DNA of 64,000 nt from Patescibacteria group bacterium (GTDB lineage Bacteria > Patescibacteriota > Minisyncoccia > UBA6257 > UBA9933): assembly GCA_038078555.1 (NCBI GenBank), contig JBBTYQ010000001.1, positions 156,158 through 220,157 on the forward strand, read 5' to 3'. The notes beneath the pieces were generated by a model, which worked only from the letters and a program-made list of their open reading frames with translations, was not told the origin of the DNA and made no database searches. This document shows, piece after piece, positions 2,082 through 59,692 of this stretch. The number at the start of each line of letters is the position of its first letter. The stretch's first letter is position 1. The position numbers were made by a program, and so were the translations under genes.

Positions 2082-3293
2082 ATGTTTATGAAGAAAAAAC
2101 TGGCCGTATTGGTTTCTCATCCAATACAATATCAAACTCCTCTTTTCAAAAAAATCGTTGAGCAACTGGAGATTGATTTAAAAGTTTATTTCTGCTGGGA
2201 TTTTGGAATTAAAGAGAAATATGACGCGGAATTTGGGAGAAAAATTAAATGGGATATACCTTTATTGGAAGGCTATGATTATAAATTTTTAAAAAATTAT
2301 TCTTTTAAGCCCTCAAGCGATTTTTGGGGGCAGATTAATCCCGGCATTATTTCCGAAATTTATAAAAATAAATACGACGCGGTTTTAATTTTCGGCTGGA
2401 ATTCATTGACTAATTGGCTGGCCTTTTTGACGGCTTTTATTATTGGGACACCGGTTTTTTTACGCGGCGAAAATCCTCTAAATCAGGAGATTTTAAAAGA
2501 TAGTTCTAAATTGGCGGTAAAAAGAGTTATTTTAGGATCGCTTTTTAAATTCATCAAAGCGTTTTTATATATTGGGCAGGAAAACAAGAAATTTTACCAG
2601 TATTACGGAGTTGCCGAAAAAAGATTGTTTTTTGCCCCCTATGCCATAGATAATGAGCGTTTTATGGAAGAAGCAAAAAAATTAAAAAAAGAAAAAGCTA
2701 AAACAAAAAAAGATTTAAAAATTGACGCCAAAAAATCCGTAATTCTTTTTATCGGCAAGCTTATTGATAAGAAAAGGCCGATGGATCTTTTGAAAGCTTA
2801 CGAAAAAACAAAAAACCGAAAAGTCAAGAAGTCAAAACAAATCGCTTTGATTTTTGTCGGAGACGGACATTTGCGCGAAGAACTGGAAAATTACACAAAA
2901 TCTAACAATATAAAAGACGTTTATTTTCTCGGCTTTAAAAACCAAACGGAAATAATGAAATATTATAGCATTGGAGATACTATAGTTTTGCCCTCTGGGA
3001 GTGGAGAAACTTGGGGGCTGGTTTTAAATGAGGCGATGTGTTTTGGTTTACCGTTGGTTATTTCTGATGCGGTTGGCGCCGGCCCCGACTTGGTTCAAAA
3101 CGATAAAAACGGCTTTATTTATCCGGTTGGCGATATAGAAAATCTTTATTTTTGCTTGAATTTTATTGATGATAAGAAAAAAATAGATTTTTTTGGAAAA
3201 AATTCTTTGAAAATCATAAAAAAATATAGTTTCGATAATGATGTAAAAGCAATTTTAGGGACATTAAAATCACTCAAAAATAATTTGAAATAA
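2082..3293 (+). CDS. glycosyltransferase, GT-B fold (GT4-like)
   Basis: C-terminal motif VLPSGSGETWGLVLNEAMCFGLPLVISD. Confidence 0.75.
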   Translation: MFMKKKLAVLVSHPIQYQTPLFKKIVEQLEIDLKVYFCWDFGIKEKYDAEFGRKIKWDIPLLEGYDYKFLKNYSFKPSSDFWGQINPGIISEIYKNKYDAVLIFGWNSLTNWLAFLTAFIIGTPVFLRGENPLNQEILKDSSKLAVKRVILGSLFKFIKAFLYIGQENKKFYQYYGVAEKRLFFAPYAIDNERFMEEAKKLKKEKAKTKKDLKIDAKKSVILFIGKLIDKKRPMDLLKAYEKTKNRKVKKSKQIALIFVGDGHLREELENYTKSNNIKDVYFLGFKNQTEIMKYYSIGDTIVLPSGSGETWGLVLNEAMCFGLPLVISDAVGAGPDLVQNDKNGFIYPVGDIENLYFCLNFIDDKKKIDFFGKNSLKIIKKYSFDNDVKAILGTLKSLKNNLK

Positions 3294-4348
3294 TGAAAAT
3301 ATTATTAGTAGGAGAAAATTATAATGGCACTGCGCTTGAGTCAATTTATAATAATTTAATTAAATTAAATATTGACACTGAAGTATTAAATACTCATGAA
3401 TTATTTAGGGCTTCCTTTACGAATCGTGTTTTAAATAAATTCTTAAAAGTTCCTTATTATTATGGCAGAGGAGTAAAAAATATAAACAAAATAGTGCTTA
3501 AAAAAGCGTCAGGAAAAGATTTTGATTTCGTTTTTTTTGTAAAACCGATTTTTATCTATCCAGGAACAATTTCTGAAATTAAAAAACATGCCAAAGTTGT
3601 CGGTTTTTACCTTGACCATATAGATTTCCCCAAATCAGGCAGCAATTATTTTTATAAATCTTTGTCTTTATTTGATTTATATTTTATGTCGATGCTTACC
3701 GTCAAAGAAGCGGCTGAAGCGACTGATAAATTCGGTTCCAAAATAATTTCTCTCCCTTTCCATAATGCCGATTCAGCGTGTTGTTATCCAATTATCGCGG
3801 CTGATGATAAGGAAAAATTAGGCGCGGACATAGTGTTTTTAGGGACGCATGCTAATGAGCGGCGGATGGAATATTCCGAAAGATTGTGCCGAGATGGTTA
3901 TGATATTAAAATTTACGGCAACGGCTGGAATTGGCACAAACTTCCGTGGAATTCGTGTTTGCGCCGTCAGAAGCGGATTATTCCGGGCAACAAACCCTGT
4001 GAAGAAATGGCAAAAATCATAAACTCCAGCAAGATAATTTTGGCTTTTATGAGGGATCATAATAATGAAGTTACTGCTTGGCGCACTTATGAAATACCTC
4101 TTTGTGGTGGATTTATGCTTCATCAAAGAACTAAAGAAGCTGAACAACTTTTGGCGCCGGACAAAGAAGCGGTTTTTTTCGGCTCCTATGATGAAATGAG
4201 AGATAAAATAGATTTTTATTTGCAGCATTCTGAATTAAGGGATAAAATAGCCAAAGCCGGACGCGAACGGATTTTAAATTGCGGGGCTTTAAATATTAAT
4301 CAAGTTAAAAAAATGGTAGAAATTCTAAAAAATGAATTCGGCGGATAA
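3293..4348 (+). CDS. CgeB-family glycosyltransferase-like protein
   Basis: C-terminal RTYEIPLCGGFMLHQRTKEAEQLL...FFGSYDEMRDKIDFYLQH...IAKAGRERIL resembles the CgeB/Glyco_trans_1_2 family. Its start overlaps the upstream stop (TAATG). Confidence 0.6.
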   Translation: MKILLVGENYNGTALESIYNNLIKLNIDTEVLNTHELFRASFTNRVLNKFLKVPYYYGRGVKNINKIVLKKASGKDFDFVFFVKPIFIYPGTISEIKKHAKVVGFYLDHIDFPKSGSNYFYKSLSLFDLYFMSMLTVKEAAEATDKFGSKIISLPFHNADSACCYPIIAADDKEKLGADIVFLGTHANERRMEYSERLCRDGYDIKIYGNGWNWHKLPWNSCLRRQKRIIPGNKPCEEMAKIINSSKIILAFMRDHNNEVTAWRTYEIPLCGGFMLHQRTKEAEQLLAPDKEAVFFGSYDEMRDKIDFYLQHSELRDKIAKAGRERILNCGALNINQVKKMVEILKNEFGG

Positions 4349-34069: not shown

Positions 34070-34297
34070 ATGGTTAAAATTTATTCAACATCAACCTGTC
34101 CCTATTGTGTGATGGCTAAAGATTATTTCAAAAAAATCGGGGAGTCTTTCGAGGAATATAACGTTTCCGAAGACGAAAACGCTCGCGAAGAAATGATTAA
34201 TAAGTCCCATCAAATGGGTGTGCCGGTAATTGATATCGACGGTACGATTATTGTCGGATTTAATCGGTCGGAGATAGATAAGGCGCTAAAAAAATAA
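34070..34297 (+). CDS. glutaredoxin/NrdH-like thiol-disulfide protein
   Basis: YSTSTCPYCVMAKDYF is a CPYC active site in a 75-aa thioredoxin-fold-sized protein. Confidence 0.8.
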   Translation: MVKIYSTSTCPYCVMAKDYFKKIGESFEEYNVSEDENAREEMINKSHQMGVPVIDIDGTIIVGFNRSEIDKALKK

Positions 34298-34364: not shown

Positions 34365-34404
34365 GCTTCGACGATTCTGTCGAAGCTCCGACTTTGCGTC
34401 GGAG
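34365..34404 (+). repeat. GC-rich twin-hairpin element in the trxB leader
   Basis: GCTTCGAC-gattct-GTCGAAGC directly followed by TCCGAC-tttgc-GTCGGA. It has the same architecture as 53621..53663. Confidence 0.7.
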
Positions 34405-34426: not shown

Positions 34427-35347
34427 ATGTACGATTTAATAATTATCGGAGGCGGTCCGGCTGGAGTGGCTGCTGGAATTTACGCCGCCAGAAAAAAACT
34501 TAAAACCCTGCTTATTGCCGAAAGTATCGGCGGCCAGCCAGTTATTGCTTCAGAAATAAATAATTTTATAGGCTTTAAATCGCTTAGCGGTGTTCAATTA
34601 AAACAGGCTCTTGAAGAGCACCTGAAGTCTTACCCCAATATTGAAATAGAAGAAGGGCAAAAAGTTTTAAAAATAGAAAAAACCAGCGACTTTTTCGCAA
34701 TCTCGACTAATAAAGGCAACTCTTACGAAGCTAAAACCATTTTAATTTCTGTCGGTTCAAGTCCTCGCCGACTTAATATTTTGGGCGAAGACAAATTTGA
34801 AGGCAAAGGCGTTTTTTATTGTTCAATTTGCGATGCGCCGCTTATGAAAAATAAGGTTGTGGCGGTTATTGGCGGAGGCAATTCCGGTTTTTATTCTATT
34901 TTGGATTTGCTTCCCTACGCCTCAAAAATTTATGTTTTGGAATATGGAGATGTTTTAAGAGCCGACCCTATTTATATTGAAAAAGCCAAAAATTCCGGAA
35001 AGGTGGAAATAATAAAAATGGCTGAAATGAAAGAAGTTGTGGGCAATAATTTTGTTTCCGGTATTAAATATCAAGATCGGACAGGCGGAGAGCTTAAAGA
35101 AATTGAACTTCAAGGCGTTTTTGTCGCGATTGGCTATCAATCTAACAGCGCCTTAGCTCAAGGATTGGTGGAGATAAATGAAAAAGGGAAAATAACGGTT
35201 AATCATCAAACGCAGGCAACTTCAATTGAAGGCGTTTGGGCAGCCGGCGACGTCACCGATGTTTTATATAATCAAATAAATATTGCCATAGGCGATGCGG
35301 TCAAAGCGGTTCTAAATATCTACGATTACTTGCAGAAAAAGCAATAG
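34427..35347 (+). CDS. trxB: thioredoxin-disulfide reductase
   Basis: IIGGGPAG FAD motif, redox-active CSICDA, a second GGGNSG dinucleotide motif, and C-terminal GVWAAGDV. Confidence 0.9.
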   Translation: MYDLIIIGGGPAGVAAGIYAARKKLKTLLIAESIGGQPVIASEINNFIGFKSLSGVQLKQALEEHLKSYPNIEIEEGQKVLKIEKTSDFFAISTNKGNSYEAKTILISVGSSPRRLNILGEDKFEGKGVFYCSICDAPLMKNKVVAVIGGGNSGFYSILDLLPYASKIYVLEYGDVLRADPIYIEKAKNSGKVEIIKMAEMKEVVGNNFVSGIKYQDRTGGELKEIELQGVFVAIGYQSNSALAQGLVEINEKGKITVNHQTQATSIEGVWAAGDVTDVLYNQINIAIGDAVKAVLNIYDYLQKKQ

Positions 35348-47614: not shown

Positions 47615-47719
47615 ATGGCAAACGTAGAGAGAGTCGGTAGCCTGCGTCGGAAGAGAATTAAAAAGCTCAAAAAGCTAAAATCTAAAAAAAGAAAAGAGAT
47701 AACGCCCCGGCAGAAATAG
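47615..47719 (+). CDS. 34-aa highly basic peptide (not in ORF track)
   Basis: AAAGGAGGatattATG SD. The translation is MANVERVGSLRRKRIKKLKKLKSKKRKEITPRQK. The CCCCGGC-agaaata-GCCGGGG terminator plus T-run spans its stop codon. Confidence 0.5.
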   Translation: MANVERVGSLRRKRIKKLKKLKSKKRKEITPRQK

Positions 47720-47794
47720 CCGGGGTTTTTTATTTAACAATATCGTAAAATGACAGATTAAAATCTGTAAGCTATAATTATTTTAAACAAAATC

Positions 47795-51353: not shown

Positions 51354-51717
51354 TGGTGGAAATGGCGGGAATTGAACCCGCGTCTGGCAGTGAATTTATA
51401 AAATATCTACAAGCTTAGCCTAATTTAAATTTAGAATTAAGAATTATGAATTAGGCAAAACATTCTCAATTCTTTGCCGTTATTGTCTTCCGATTTCCGG
51501 CAGGAGCGGAACAAGCTCAAATTATTACACCCGAAACCCTCAAATTGAGCGTTTAAGGACGGATGCTGCATTAAGCAAAAGCTAACGCAGGAGTCCCGCT
51601 CAGCGGGACTAATCTGTTTTTGGCAGATATTTTGTTTAATCCGATGATTTATGAGGTGACGAATTGTCCTCAGCTTGCTGTTTTATAAATGTGCCGCCAT
51701 CAAATCCAATCATTCCC
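51354..51717 (-). ncRNA. ssrA: tmRNA (SsrA)
   Basis: The 5' end GGGAATGATTGGATTTGATGG pairs with the 3' end ...CATTTCCACCA, including the G3:U pair. T-arm GCGGGTTCAATTCCCGC. The internal tag ORF GCC AAA AAC AGA TTA GTC CCG CTG AGC GGG ACT CCT GCG TTA GCT TTT GCT TAA encodes AKNRLVPLSGTPALAFA. It is adjacent to smpB. Confidence 0.9.
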
Positions 51718-53423: not shown

Positions 53424-55070
53424 ATGAAACTAATGATTAAATCAATAATTGAAAATTATCTTAAAAAAATTATTAAAGAGCCGGTAGCAATAGAAGTTTT
53501 TGCGCCAGAACAGGAACAATTCGGACACTATTCAACCAGCGTTGCTTTAAAGTTAGCAAAAGAAAAAAAGCAAAGCCCGATGGAAATCGCAAATAAAATA
53601 GTGTCAGGTGTTAAAGGTCAGCCTCGACGTCAAAGAGTCGGGGCTCCGACCGAAACATCGGAGATGTCAGATATCGTGAGTAAGATTGAAGTTGTTCCGC
53701 CCGGCTTTATAAATTTTTGGATTTCTCCAGAAGCTTTGCAGGATGAGCTTAAAGAAATTTTGAAGAAAAAAGAAAAATATGGCAGGTTGAATGTCAAAGG
53801 TAAAATCTCAAAGGTTCAACTAGAATATGTCTCCGCCAATCCAACAGGACCTTTGACTTTAGCTAACGGCCGAGGCGGATTTTTTGGCGATGTTTTAAGC
53901 AATATTTTGGAATTTTCCGGCTGTAAAATTGAGCGGGAATATTATGTTAATGATACCGGCAATCAGATATTCACTTTAGGCCGGTCGATTTTGGCTCTAA
54001 GGGGATTAATTGACTCTGAAGAAAAATTTTATAAAGGGCAATATTTGAAAAAATGGGCGGAGGGAAAATCTGCTTTAATAAAAAGATTTGCCAATAATCC
54101 CTTGAAGTTAGGCCAATTAGCAGCCAAAGATTTTCTGGCGGAAATAAAAAAAGTTTTAAACAAAGGCGCTGATATATGTTTTGACAGGTGGACTTCGGAA
54201 GATAAGCATATTCATAAAAAAAGTTTTATCACAAAAACAATGGAAGTTTTTAATCGTACCGGTTTAGTTTATGAAAAAGAAGGAGCGGTTTGGCTAAAAA
54301 CTTCAAAATACGGCGATGATAAAGATAGAGTATTAATTACCAGCGATGGTTTGCCTACTTATTTTTTAGCAGATGCCGGCCATTTTTTGGAAACCAAGTC
54401 CCGCGGTTTTAATTCGAAAATAATGATTTTAGGCCCCGATCACTATGGCTATGTCAAAAGAATTCAAGCAGCCGCTAAAATCATTGGCCTGGAAAAATTA
54501 GAAATTATTATTACTCAAGCCGTTAGGTTAATCAAAGATAATCAGGAAGTTAAAATGTCCAAGCGGAAAGGCGAATTTGTTGCTTTTGAAGAATTATTGA
54601 AAGAAGTAGGAAAAGACATCGCTAGATTTTTCTTTTTAATGCATTCTCCGGACAGCCATATGGATTTTGACCTTTCATTAGCCAAAGAGCAATCGATGAA
54701 AAATCCGGTTTATTATTTGCAATATGCGGCAGTAAGGGCGCAAAGTATTTTAAATAAATCAAATGTCAAAAATAAGATGTCAAATGCCAATTTAAACCTA
54801 TTAAATACTCCTGAAGATATAAATTTAATGCGTTTGCTTGCGCGGTTTCCCGAAAGCGTTGAAGAATCAAGAAATAAATACAGTCCGCAAATTTTAGCGC
54901 GTTATTCTCTGGATTTAGCGAGAGAGTTTCATAATTTTTATGAGCGGGAGCGCATTATTGGGGAGGCGCCAGAACTTGCGGTAGCGAGGCTTCAATTAAT
55001 TAAAGCAGTCAGAATAGTTTTTGGAAATTTGTTTAATTTATTGGATGTCAGCTATCCAAAAAAAATGTGA
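53424..55070 (+). CDS. argS: arginine--tRNA ligase
   Basis: PPGFINFW, SANPTGPLTLANGRGG (HIGH-region equivalent), GPDHYGYV and MSKRKGEFV (KMSKS-like). The start may be the second ATG at 53433. Confidence 0.95.
   Translation: MKLMIKSIIENYLKKIIKEPVAIEVFAPEQEQFGHYSTSVALKLAKEKKQSPMEIANKIVSGVKGQPRRQRVGAPTETSEMSDIVSKIEVVPPGFINFWISPEALQDELKEILKKKEKYGRLNVKGKISKVQLEYVSANPTGPLTLANGRGGFFGDVLSNILEFSGCKIEREYYVNDTGNQIFTLGRSILALRGLIDSEEKFYKGQYLKKWAEGKSALIKRFANNPLKLGQLAAKDFLAEIKKVLNKGADICFDRWTSEDKHIHKKSFITKTMEVFNRTGLVYEKEGAVWLKTSKYGDDKDRVLITSDGLPTYFLADAGHFLETKSRGFNSKIMILGPDHYGYVKRIQAAAKIIGLEKLEIIITQAVRLIKDNQEVKMSKRKGEFVAFEELLKEVGKDIARFFFLMHSPDSHMDFDLSLAKEQSMKNPVYYLQYAAVRAQSILNKSNVKNKMSNANLNLLNTPEDINLMRLLARFPESVEESRNKYSPQILARYSLDLAREFHNFYERERIIGEAPELAVARLQLIKAVRIVFGNLFNLLDVSYPKKM
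53621..53663 (+). repeat. GC-rich twin-hairpin element in frame inside argS
   Basis: GCCTCGAC-gtcaaaga-GTCGGGGC directly followed by TCCGAC-cgaaaca-TCGGAG. It encodes part of the extra ...GQPRRQRVGAPTETSEM... segment. Confidence 0.7.
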
Positions 55071-56065: not shown

Positions 56066-56152
56066 ATTTTTGTTTAATTACGGGCTTGGTTTATTTAAAA
56101 TCAAGCCCTTTTTTATTAAAAATTTTGTGATAAAATTAATTATATTTATATT

Positions 56153-59100
56153 ATGCTTAAAAATCTTAAACACTTAACGCCTGCGGAAACCGAAGAAGAA
56201 GTATTAAAATTTTGGCAAAAAGACAAAACTTTTGAAAAATCCCTTCAGCAAGCTCAGGGCAAGTCTTTAGATAAAAAAACGTCCAAGGGCGATTTTGTTT
56301 TCTATGACGGTCCGCCTTTTGCCACTGGCTTGCCGCATTACGGCCATATTTTAACCAGTATTTTGAAAGATGTTATTCCTCGATATCAAACAATGAAAGG
56401 CAAAATTGTGCCGCGCCGTTGGGGCTGGGATTGCCATGGTTTGCCCATTGAAAACGAAATTGAGAAAAAACTTGGCTTAAAAACCAAAAAAGACATTGAA
56501 AATATCGGAATAGGAGTATTTAACGAATCAGCTCGAGATAATGTTTTGCAATATGCCGACGAATGGAAAAAAATCATTCCCAGAGTAGGCCGCTGGGTTG
56601 ATATGGAGCGGGATTATAAAACAATGGATTCGAATTATACAGAATCGGTCTGGTGGGTTTTTAAATCGCTTTTTGATAAGGGCTTGGTATACGAAGGCAA
56701 TAAATCAATGCATGTTTGTCCGAGGTGCGAAACTCCTTTGGCAAATTTTGAGCTTAATCAGCCCGGCGCGTATCGTGATATTACCGATATTTCAATCACT
56801 GTAAAATTTGAACTTCTGGAAGAAAAAAATACTTATATTTTAGCTTGGACCACTACGCCTTGGACTTTACCGGGCAATGTGGCGCTCGCAATTAATCCAA
56901 AAATAGATTATGTAAAAGTTTCTAAAGGCAGTGAAAATTTAATTTTAGCAAAAAGCCGGTTGGCTATAATTGAAGGTGAATATAAAATTTTAGAAACTTT
57001 TAAAGGTAAAAATTTAATCGGAAAAAAATATCAGCCGGTTTTTGATTATTATTCTTCTGCCGGCGGACAATTAAAAAACAGGGAAAACGGCTGGAAAATT
57101 TATCCTGCTGATTTCGTTTCAATCGAAGAAGGCACCGGCATTGTCCATATTGCTCCGGCTTTTGGCGAAGATGATATGAAGTTGGGCAATAAATTTAATC
57201 TGCCTTTTGTCCAGCATGTTTCAACAAGCGGAAAATTTAAGCCCGAAGTAAAAGATTTTGCCGGCATGGATGTTAAGCCGAAAGAAAATCACCAAATAAC
57301 CGACATTGAAATTATTAAATGGCTTGCCAAAGAAAATAAGCTTTTCAGCAAACAAAAAATTGTTCATTCTTATCCTCATTGTTGGCGTTGTGATACTCCG
57401 CTTCTAAACTATGCCAGCACTTCGTGGTTTGTTAAGGCGACGGATATCAAGAAAAAACTCATTGAGAATAATAAAAAAATAAACTGGATTCCAGGCCATA
57501 TTAAAGAAGGCCGCTTTGGCAAATGGTTGGAAGAAGTTCGCGATTGGGCGATTTCCCGCACTCGCTTTTGGGGCGCGCCGCTTCCGGTTTGGCAATGCAA
57601 CAAATGCGATAAAAGAGAAATTATCGGTTCATTGGAAGAACTTAAAAATAAAATTGAGAAATCAGGCAATAAATATTTTGTTATGCGCCATGGCGAAGCT
57701 CAAAGTAATGTTAAAAATATTGCCAGCTGCAATGTAAAAAATAGCCATCATCTTACGGAAAAAGGGAAAAAGCAGGCGATTGCCGCGGGCAGTAAATTAA
57801 AAAAAGAGAAAATAGATTTGATATTTGCTTCCGATTATTTGCGCACTAAAGAAACTGCCGAAATTGTTGCCGATAAACTGGAAATTTCAAAAAAAGATTT
57901 AATTTTTGACCAAAGGTTGCGCGAAATTAATGTTGGCATATTTGACGGCCAATCAGCCGGAGAATATCACAAATATTTTTCTTCGCTTGAAGAAAAATTT
58001 TACAAAAATCCGCCAAAAGGAGAAAATTTAACAGAGTTGAAAAATAGGGTTTCAGAATTTTTATACGAAATAGATAAAAAATATTCTTGTAAGAATATTT
58101 TAATTGTTTCTCATGAATATTCTATCTGGCAGATGTTTGCCGGAGCTCTTGGCGCCAATCCCAAAAAAGCGGTTGAAATAAAGTATAAGGATGATTTCAT
58201 AAAAACCGCTGAAATTAAAAAACTTGATTTTATCCCCATTCCTCATAATAAAAATTATGAGCTTGATTTTCATCGGCCTTATATTGATGAGATGGTTTTC
58301 CCTTGTTCCAATTCAGCAGGTTCAGGGAAAGCTTGTGGCGGAGAAATGACGCGCATTAAAGATGTTTTTGATTGCTGGTTTGAGTCAGGCTCAATGCCTT
58401 ATAGCCAAATTCATTATCCGTTTGAGAATAAAAAATGGTTTGAGGATAATTTTCCGGCGGAATTTATCGCTGAAGGCATCGATCAGACTCGCGGTTGGTT
58501 TTACACGCTTTTGGTTTTATCCACTGCTTTGTTTAATAAGCCGGCTTATAAAAATGTGATTGTAAGCGGCATTGTTTTAGCCCAAGACGGCCAAAAAATG
58601 AGCAAGCGCTTAAAAAATTATCCTGACCCGATGGAAATTGTAAATAAATACGGCGCGGATGCTCTAAGGCTTTATTTGCTTTCTTCGCCATTGGTGCGCG
58701 GTGAAAATCTGAATTTTTCCGGCCATGGCGTTGACGAAGTTTATAAGAAAGTCATTTTGCGTTTCTGGAATACTTATAAATTTTATGAGCTATATAACAA
58801 TCAAATTTCTAGTTCTAAAAACAAAATTCCAAATCCAAATAATGTTTTGGACAAATGGATTATTGCGCGCCTTAAGGAGTTAGTAAGCGAAACTTCAAAA
58901 TTTTTGGATAGCTATGAATTAGACCGCGCCAGCCGGCCGATATTTGATTTTGTCGACGATCTTTCCACCTGGTATATCAGAAGATCGCGTGAAAGGTTTA
59001 AGGGGGACAGCAAAGATAAAAAATCTGTCGCAACTGTCACTAGTTTTGTGCTTATTGAATTTAGTAAGGTCACTGCGCCTTTTATGCCTTTTATTAGCGA

Positions 59101-59692
59101 AGGTATTTATAAGTCATTGACTAGCGGAAGAAGCGTTCATTTGGAAAATTGGCCTAAAGCCGCTAAATTAACTCCTCAAGACAATAAGATAATTGAAAAT
59201 ATGAAAAGCGCGCGGCAAGTCGCTTCTTCGGCGCTTCAGGCCCGGGCTAAAAACGGCATTAAAGTCAGACAGCCGCTGGCCAGCTTAAAAATAAAAAATG
59301 AAAAATTAGAAATTCGAGATCAGAGCGATTTTTTGAATTTAATTAAAGACGAGATTAATGTTAAAGAAATTATTTTTGATAAAGATATTAAAGAAGAAAT
59401 CGAGCTTGATTTAAAAATCACCGCCGAGCTAAGGCAGGAGGGAATAGTAAGAGATATAAGCAGAATGGTTCAGGAATTAAGGCAGGATGCGGGGTGTAAG
59501 CCTCAACATAAAATCGATTTGCATATTGAAGTGCCCGAGGAAATTAAAAACGCGCTCTTGAATTACATCAATGAATTAAAAGAAAAAGTAGGCGCAAAAA
59601 ATATAGAATTTCGCCGTAATGATAAATTTGACGCGGAAATTGAAACAAAAATCGATGATTCCAAAATTTGGATAGGAATAAAGAAATTATAA
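56153..59692 (+). CDS. ileS: isoleucine--tRNA ligase (type 2) with nested histidine-phosphatase domain
   Basis: PPFATGLPHYGHIL (HIGH), the CP1 editing region (TTTPWTLPGN), KMSKRLKNYPDP (KMSKS), and Cys pairs CWRC, CNKC and C..C.GEM. Residues of about 507-702 are RHG-type histidine phosphatase (FVMRHGEAQSN...ASDYLRTKETA...LIVSHE). Confidence 0.9.
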   Translation: MLKNLKHLTPAETEEEVLKFWQKDKTFEKSLQQAQGKSLDKKTSKGDFVFYDGPPFATGLPHYGHILTSILKDVIPRYQTMKGKIVPRRWGWDCHGLPIENEIEKKLGLKTKKDIENIGIGVFNESARDNVLQYADEWKKIIPRVGRWVDMERDYKTMDSNYTESVWWVFKSLFDKGLVYEGNKSMHVCPRCETPLANFELNQPGAYRDITDISITVKFELLEEKNTYILAWTTTPWTLPGNVALAINPKIDYVKVSKGSENLILAKSRLAIIEGEYKILETFKGKNLIGKKYQPVFDYYSSAGGQLKNRENGWKIYPADFVSIEEGTGIVHIAPAFGEDDMKLGNKFNLPFVQHVSTSGKFKPEVKDFAGMDVKPKENHQITDIEIIKWLAKENKLFSKQKIVHSYPHCWRCDTPLLNYASTSWFVKATDIKKKLIENNKKINWIPGHIKEGRFGKWLEEVRDWAISRTRFWGAPLPVWQCNKCDKREIIGSLEELKNKIEKSGNKYFVMRHGEAQSNVKNIASCNVKNSHHLTEKGKKQAIAAGSKLKKEKIDLIFASDYLRTKETAEIVADKLEISKKDLIFDQRLREINVGIFDGQSAGEYHKYFSSLEEKFYKNPPKGENLTELKNRVSEFLYEIDKKYSCKNILIVSHEYSIWQMFAGALGANPKKAVEIKYKDDFIKTAEIKKLDFIPIPHNKNYELDFHRPYIDEMVFPCSNSAGSGKACGGEMTRIKDVFDCWFESGSMPYSQIHYPFENKKWFEDNFPAEFIAEGIDQTRGWFYTLLVLSTALFNKPAYKNVIVSGIVLAQDGQKMSKRLKNYPDPMEIVNKYGADALRLYLLSSPLVRGENLNFSGHGVDEVYKKVILRFWNTYKFYELYNNQISSSKNKIPNPNNVLDKWIIARLKELVSETSKFLDSYELDRASRPIFDFVDDLSTWYIRRSRERFKGDSKDKKSVATVTSFVLIEFSKVTAPFMPFISEGIYKSLTSGRSVHLENWPKAAKLTPQDNKIIENMKSARQVASSALQARAKNGIKVRQPLASLKIKNEKLEIRDQSDFLNLIKDEINVKEIIFDKDIKEEIELDLKITAELRQEGIVRDISRMVQELRQDAGCKPQHKIDLHIEVPEEIKNALLNYINELKEKVGAKNIEFRRNDKFDAEIETKIDDSKIWIGIKKL

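Follow-up and report, generated by a model that had tools for sequence, protein, structure and literature searches.

A GC-rich twin-hairpin repeat in frame in argS of a Wolfebacteria-like genome, with copies in other Patescibacteria

The 64,000 nt of DNA analysed here (the window: positions 156,158 to 220,157 of contig JBBTYQ010000001.1, assembly GCA_038078555.1) come from a Candidatus Wolfebacteria-like genome of the Patescibacteria, or Candidate Phyla Radiation (CPR), and include an argS gene, for arginine-tRNA ligase (ArgRS), that contains an in-frame, GC-rich element made of two abutting hairpins. The same twin hairpin stands in a spacer elsewhere in the window and recurs in other CPR genomes. 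The argS feature is probably one copy of a family of short, GC-rich, dispersed palindromic repeats of AT-rich Patescibacteria that spreads as non-autonomous mobile DNA. We infer mobility, present or past, from filled and empty sites and from the dispersal of the copies; those in coding sequence would be retained by selection only when in frame, free of stop codons and within a permissive loop. The genomes of Patescibacteria are very small, streamlined and regarded as nearly repeat-free, and a 42-nt palindromic repeat is now found in several Patescibacteria lineages, fixed twice within essential translation-related genes, argS and dus (tRNA-dihydrouridine synthase, Dus). This parallels the Rickettsia palindromic elements (RPEs), whose hosts are likewise reduced, host-dependent bacteria. 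The traits that stand out are the very small size of the element, its conservation across deep CPR lineages and its occurrence in streamlined genomes.

The two window copies and the argS insertion

The window holds exactly two copies of the consensus CYTCGAC-loop-GTCGRRG, directly followed by CTCCGAC-loop-(G)TCGGAG, which is GC-rich and roughly 42 nt long (Table 1). In the argS copy, hairpin 1 reads CCTCGAC (53622-53628)-GTCAAAGA-GTCGGGG (53637-53643), with an 8-nt loop (gtcaaaga) and a preceding G, and hairpin 2 abuts it as CTCCGAC (53644-53650)-CGAAAC-ATCGGAG (53657-53663). The copy in the 129-nt spacer between nrdH and trxB has the same layout: CTTCGAC (34366-34372)-GATTCT-GTCGAAG (34379-34385), also preceded by G and with a 6-nt loop, then CTCCGAC (34386-34392)-TTTGC-GTCGGAG (34398-34404), abutting and with a 5-nt loop. 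An initial annotation of this DNA had described GC-rich twin hairpins in argS and in the trxB leader that share stems and order and differ in their loops, and the sequence is as described: the stems are identical at 25 of 28 positions and the loops are unrelated. Stem 1 differs between the spacer and argS copies by one T-A to C-G double change and one T-A to T-G change, so pairing is preserved. The elements have a GC content of 56-63%, against 35.7% in the window, whose GC skew climbs all along its 64 kb, and the source genome has 36% GC. Both copies are predicted to fold as two hairpins, at -24.8 kcal/mol (z -4.0) in argS and -22.0 kcal/mol (z -3.3) in the spacer.

The similarity of the two loci goes well beyond chance. 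The stem pattern occurs twice where 2e-11 occurrences are expected in 64 kb, and the 14-nt junction GTCGRRGCTCCGAC, with at most two mismatches allowed, is found only at these two window sites (0.24 expected). We also scanned the whole window, with filters off, using a covariance model (R2) built from an alignment (A4) of copies of other organisms only, both window copies being left out. The model recovered the window copies with E 1.9e-8 (43.8 bits) and 4.4e-8 (42.2 bits). The hit ranked after them, at E 1.3, is an ordinary intrinsic terminator at 47702-47741 (GCCCCGGC...GCCGGGG and then a T-run), which scores E 0.7-1.3 across the element models. The element itself is excluded as an intrinsic terminator because its GC-rich stem lacks a T-run: there is none after either window copy, and a terminator scan called neither. 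No Rfam match to the element was found either, the window scan returning only a tmRNA and local E-value scans returning noise at 10-14 bits. Insert-bearing ArgRS was recovered from independent assemblies (GCA_964355705.1, ERR3858120, SRR32696712 and ERZ1292619), and its independent assembly from several samples argues that the insert is not an assembly artefact.

The extra DNA in argS is exactly 42 nt, coincides with the twin hairpin, is free of stop codons and lies between the codons for Q66 and M81. Translation across it reads ...GQPRRQRVGAPTETSEM..., with PPGFINFW beginning 11 residues downstream of the insert; the initial annotation had pointed out this Pro/Arg/Gly-rich stretch before PPGFINFW and had suspected an insertion relative to other ArgRS proteins, a suspicion that protein and DNA comparisons bear out. 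In an alignment with 120 homologues, PRRQRVGAPTETSE is present only in the query and in an identical entry (P0001; P numbers denote proteins and L numbers loci) and is missing from the 119 other relatives among the matches listed. The 66% identical P0004 reads KGQ/MSDVVSKIEV across the site (the slash marking the junction), without the insert. Its DNA provides an empty site, AAAGGTCAA/ATGTCAGAT, to compare with the filled site of the window, AAAGGTCAG-(42 nt)-ATGTCAGAT. No target-site duplication of at least 3 bp was found in this comparison, and repetition across the junctions is limited to two bases (AG) at the most. Apart from the insert, argS is full length. Its product is nearest to proteins of Candidatus Wolfebacteria and other Patescibacteria, the best named match in the protein search being 69% identical.

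In an AlphaFold2 model of ArgRS (74 aligned sequences), residues 66-79 are assigned a coil state by DSSP, between a helix (52-65) and a helix/strand segment (80-91). The protein outside the insert is modelled confidently, and the blocks at the insert have a predicted local distance difference test (pLDDT) score of 75 and 61, so that the insert maps as a low-confidence coil between well-modelled elements. We read it as a loop in the N-terminal domain, which its coil state and low confidence suggest to be on the surface. The insert would be translated as a 14-residue Pro/Arg/Gly-rich segment, and the tryptic peptide expected from such translation is VGAPTETSEMSDIVSK.

The same ArgRS loop hosts different GC-rich, in-frame palindromes in other CPR lineages. 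These are CCCGCAACGCTTCGCGTAGCGATTCGGG at L025 2479-2506 (P0094/P0099; peptide PARNASRSDSG) and, at L026 10204-10224, AACAGTCGCAAAGCGACTGTT, whose 9-bp stem is perfect (P0071/P0102; peptide SPKTVAKRLFGQ). From these sequences, palindromic DNA appears to have landed in this loop repeatedly. A further ArgRS (P0108, L027 935-2875) has an R/Q/T/D-rich insertion of about 65 residues, placed upstream of the loop by roughly 20 residues; its coding DNA is a GCGACA-like tandem repeat and not a palindrome.

Copies in other Patescibacteria and a second in-frame case

Searches for further copies applied a strict pattern to one genome for each species, scanned metagenomes with a pattern and re-searched the fetched loci with the model. 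The strict scan matched one Taylorbacteria genome (L001) and one Saccharibacteria genome (L002), and the metagenome scan added contigs of low GC content (L006/L008 and L010; 0.35-0.39) and of higher GC content (L011, 0.63; L015/L016, 0.48-0.50). Pattern matches in the high-GC loci L003, L004, L009, L012-L014 and L017 were rejected as chance occurrences within GC-rich sequence, and in those read closely, such as L004, stem 1 is unpaired. Nine of the 11 distinct copies are extragenic. Family members are 40-44 nt long and consist of two abutting hairpins with 7-bp stems of nearly the same sequence. Of the stem cells in an alignment of ten distinct sequences, 98.6% are paired, and four pairs have changed on both sides, while the loops vary; since each double change is found in one sequence only, these compensatory changes are modest evidence. 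The stems (GTCGGGGCTCCGAC core) are near-invariant across lineages separated at class to phylum level. In viral contigs, the strict pattern had no matches; the 34 loci returned by a looser pattern were all turned down by the covariance model, and there is no sign of phages carrying the element.

The Taylorbacteria locus has four copies in 8 kb, near-identical even in their loops and about 10 nt of flank, in spacers among the genes for RseP, a class II aminoacyl-tRNA synthetase, mreBCD, PBP2 and greA. Their loops, GCTTCG and CGAAGC, are mutual reverse complements, so hairpin 2 is the reverse complement of hairpin 1 and the element is an inverted doublet, whose 40 nt can alternatively form one long hairpin. 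Two of these copies and the Saccharibacteria copy are antisense to transcription. Orientation is therefore inconsistent, and these antisense copies rule out a sense-strand bias hinting at an RNA function. The Taylorbacteria spacers are mosaics in which short repeats of several other families (GATGGGGTGT and CTTCCCCTCTTTAGAGGGGAAG among them) lie beside the twin hairpins (L001 5650-5900 and 7280-7350), and ATTCGTAT motifs stand on either side of the hairpins.

Two more loci have unusual arrangements. On L015 (4996-5150; also on L016), a twin hairpin stands just past the stop codon of a minus-strand gene for a LysM-domain protein. Beyond the hairpin, the final 15 codons of the gene and its stop are repeated (QNSDLITAGQVIKLP*), with synonymous differences only; the insertion seems to have carried in or generated a substitute 3' end for the gene. 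In a Wolfebacteria-like relative, the spacer before ileS (L029 12525-12552) contains a solo hairpin resembling hairpin 2 (GGCTCCGAC-caagc-GTCGGA), which may be the remnant of half an element.

A second coding insertion is found on contig L010 (35% GC), from another Paceibacteria genome, where the element lies within the Dus gene. The protein reads ...KFN-RPRRSSRGSDRSVG-ENEKP..., an addition of 14 residues from exactly 42 nt, and the insert is missing from 118 of 120 orthologues (with identity down to 79-80%), while a 97% identical Dus gene from another sample also carries it. For the empty site we used a relative whose protein is only 79% identical, and TCGR microhomology is possible at the junction. 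The reading frame through hairpin 2 differs between the Dus and argS copies. Both coding copies are exactly 42 nt and stop-free, as expected from selection for frame, and non-coding copies measure 41-44 nt. Across nine copies, 48 of 54 reading frames contain no stop, so the element is able to survive in coding sequence.

Known relatives, rival explanations and mobilisation

RPEs are palindromic repeats of Rickettsia that occur in frame in genes (PMC10969869), and the initial annotation had likened the argS element to them. What stands of this comparison is the behaviour. Like RPEs, the twin hairpin is palindromic and dispersed in the small AT-rich genome of a host-dependent bacterium, has non-coding copies too, and in argS and Dus is inserted in frame in housekeeping genes and apparently read through as extra peptide; the mobility implied by the likeness is deduced from the sites and their dispersal. 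Membership of the RPE family does not stand. RPEs are about 100-150 bp long and form ten families confined to Rickettsia, whereas the twin hairpin has 40-44 nt, adds 14 residues and belongs to Patescibacteria, and its two in-frame cases compare with a reported 44 integrations, into genes unrelated to one another, in R. conorii. It is RPE-like in behaviour and outside the RPE family by length and host, a distinction drawn from descriptions of the families.

In architecture the twin hairpin is closest to a doublet of repetitive extragenic palindromic (REP) units, the REPIN, which is defined as two inverted REP units able to form one long hairpin (PMC3337134, PMC3116915). Like REPs, bacterial interspersed mosaic elements and REPINs, it is built of short, imperfect, GC-rich palindromes, its Taylorbacteria doublet is inverted, and most of the sampled copies occupy spacers between housekeeping genes. 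It differs in having no spacer between the units and about 40 nt to the roughly 100 of REPINs, in having copies inside genes, and in ranging over phylum-level CPR lineages, REPIN families being as a rule restricted to one lineage. Hundreds of copies are typical of REPINs; in the stretches sampled, four copies were counted in 8 kb in Taylorbacteria and two in the roughly 74 kb made up of the window and the adjoining 10 kb. No REP-associated tyrosine transposase (RAYT) gene flanked by twin hairpins was found in the partial genomes sampled. As for IS200/IS605 elements such as IS608 and ISDra2, two similar hairpins on the same strand could act as left- and right-end recognition structures for the Y1/HUH enzyme TnpA (PMC6006769), and the argS insertion likewise has no target duplication of at least 3 bp; unlike those elements, the twin hairpin carries no cargo gene between the hairpins and has no detected cleavage tetranucleotide, guide sequence or linked enzyme.

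Short GC-rich palindromes, some of them within protein-coding genes, are also known from the very AT-rich mitochondrial genomes of yeasts, as mobile GC clusters and 'byp' inserts. The twin hairpin resembles them as a short, GC-rich palindromic insert scattered in an AT-rich genome and sometimes within coding genes, and differs from them in that they are organellar and that byps are untranslated and free to have lengths other than multiples of three. Both kinds of insert are discussed in PMC4464245 and PMC5009743, and bypassing is reviewed in the latter.

It is conceivable that the twin hairpin is not selfish DNA at all and is instead a functional module selected by the host, such as a protein-binding site, a signal for RNA stability or processing, or a translation-modulating leader, that has been recruited repeatedly. 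Its stems are almost identical in lineages as distant as Wolfebacteria, Taylorbacteria and Saccharibacteria, with compensatory changes preserving them; in three cases (trxB, Taylorbacteria PBP2 and a gene on L006) a copy has a start codon 15-22 nt downstream; and co-option is known for REP elements (PMC3337134). However, a general regulatory role is unlikely because the copies adjoin genes that are unrelated to one another (trxB, PBP2, tRNA genes, a LysM protein and a pilin-like gene), the orientation is inconsistent and two copies are in coding sequence, where a role as leader or terminator makes no sense. The closest relatives, moreover, do not have the element at the same sites, and neither a T-run nor an Rfam match points to an RNA signal. 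We regard such a host module as improbable. A Shine-Dalgarno role for the terminal GGAG is ruled out, the distance to the ATG being 15-22 nt and the motif being paired in the hairpin. A classical MITE (a miniature transposable element with inverted repeats), moved by a DDE transposase through its terminal inverted repeats, is less likely still. The outer arms, CCTCGAC and GTCGGAG, do form imperfect inverted repeats, and the element is small, non-coding and dispersed, but about 40 nt is far below the usual size of MITEs (PMC10969869), no parental insertion sequence with such ends was seen in any locus, and the target-site duplication that defines DDE-type MITEs together with terminal inverted repeats is missing at the argS site (none of at least 3 bp) and without counterpart as consistent direct repeats at the other copies.

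Slightly less probable again is that the 42 nt of argS never reach the protein, either because they are cut out of the mRNA or because the ribosome skips them, as happens in T4 gene 60 and in the GC-rich byps of Magnusiomyces mitochondria. The high local stability of the insert and the general setting, GC-rich palindromes in an AT-rich genome, are compatible with bypassing. Against it, both coding inserts have 42 nt and no stop in the host frame, a constraint needed only if they are translated, and neither matched take-off and landing codons nor an adjacent stop is evident in the sequence. The idea that would detach argS from repeated DNA altogether, namely chance similarity or an ancestral ArgRS loop lost elsewhere, has the short length of the element in its favour and nothing further; it is refuted by the ArgRS alignment, by the leave-out model (E about 2e-8 and 4e-8), which adds to the negligible number of stem matches expected, and by the presence of the same DNA in non-coding spacers and in a different gene, Dus. 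We give it practically no weight.

For a non-autonomous element that moves or once moved, our preferred guess for the mobilising step, held tentatively, is that an HUH/Y1 tyrosine transposase of the RAYT or IS200/IS605 TnpA type, supplied in trans, recognises the hairpins when the DNA is single-stranded. The twin-hairpin architecture speaks for this guess. Such enzymes recognise hairpins in REPINs mobilised with RAYTs (PMC3337134) and at IS200/IS605 ends (PMC6006769). The enzyme would insert the element without duplicating the target, and the argS site, with no duplication of at least 3 bp, is consistent with HUH-type insertion. One element-bearing contig, L006, does contain a Y1_Tnp gene (PF01797, 28.3 bits). 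This ORF (IS200-like/RAYT-like, 3151-3873) has a hairpin, AACAGCGCCTAAGGCGCTGTT, on both flanks (3139-3159 and 3865-3885) and a third copy of it inside, in frame (3369-3389; ..TAPKALS..), and the twin hairpin stands 1.1 kb upstream.

Several observations weigh against mobile DNA and its proposed enzyme. The L006 gene was dropped as direct evidence, its flanks being the different hairpin and not the twin hairpin, and no homologue of its protein was found in the window or in any other sampled locus, the genomes being partial. None of ten Taylorbacteria ORFs scanned against Pfam is a transposase, and no transposase of any kind is linked to the element across the sampled loci. Neither a flanking tetranucleotide such as GTAG nor a consistent target sequence is conserved among the copies. 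The copy number in this genome is low, and apart from the solo hairpin the element was not found in about 140 kb from seven related contigs. No presence/absence polymorphism was seen within a population, and the activity of the element, like the translation of the argS insert, is putative.

A bolder extension, which we consider rather doubtful, is that the near-invariant stems of a pan-Patescibacteria element reflect recognition by a conserved CPR enzyme, either in a miniature REPIN/RAYT-like partnership or by a new route of mobilisation, and that together with the other palindromes in the same ArgRS loop the element represents a general source of lineage-specific loops in CPR housekeeping proteins. 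Our full-text searches, whose coverage is incomplete, returned no paper combining CPR or Patescibacteria with palindromic, REP or MITE elements. This agrees with the initial impression that such an element had not been described for these genomes, and is not proof of novelty. The twin hairpin offers a testable origin for some short lineage-specific insertions in CPR proteins, and could serve as a compact marker for strain typing and as a substrate for tracking down the single-strand DNA enzyme responsible. Annotators should take such inserts neither for sequencing errors nor for functional motifs of ArgRS.

Coordinates and neighbouring genes

Table 1. Window positions of the two twin hairpins and of the genes that contain or flank them.
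Feature	Position	Strand	Remarks
Twin hairpin in argS	53622..53663	+	42 nt; encodes PRRQRVGAPTETSE, ArgRS residues 67-80
Twin hairpin in nrdH-trxB spacer	34366..34404	+	Non-coding; ends 22 nt upstream of trxB ATG
argS, arginine-tRNA ligase (host gene)	53424..55070	+	548 aa counted from first ATG (database entry P0001, 545 aa); AlphaFold2 mean pLDDT 92.9
Glutaredoxin/NrdH-like ORF, upstream of spacer copy	34070..34297	+	ORF call; putative name from CPYC motif
trxB-like ORF, downstream of spacer copy	34427..35347	+	ORF call; putative name from the initial annotation

Two neighbours of argS deserve mention in their own right. A tmRNA gene lies upstream, at 51354-51717 on the minus strand, between smpB and small Cys-rich ORFs, and its tag is AKNRLVPLSGTPALAFA. 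The isoleucine-tRNA ligase (IleRS) gene that adjoins argS (about 56144-59683, plus strand; 1179 aa) encodes a protein in which a histidine-phosphatase domain (PF00300, His_Phos_1) splits the two halves of tRNA-synt_1, an arrangement kept in all sampled relatives, with orthologues in L018, L022, L025, L026, L028 and L029.

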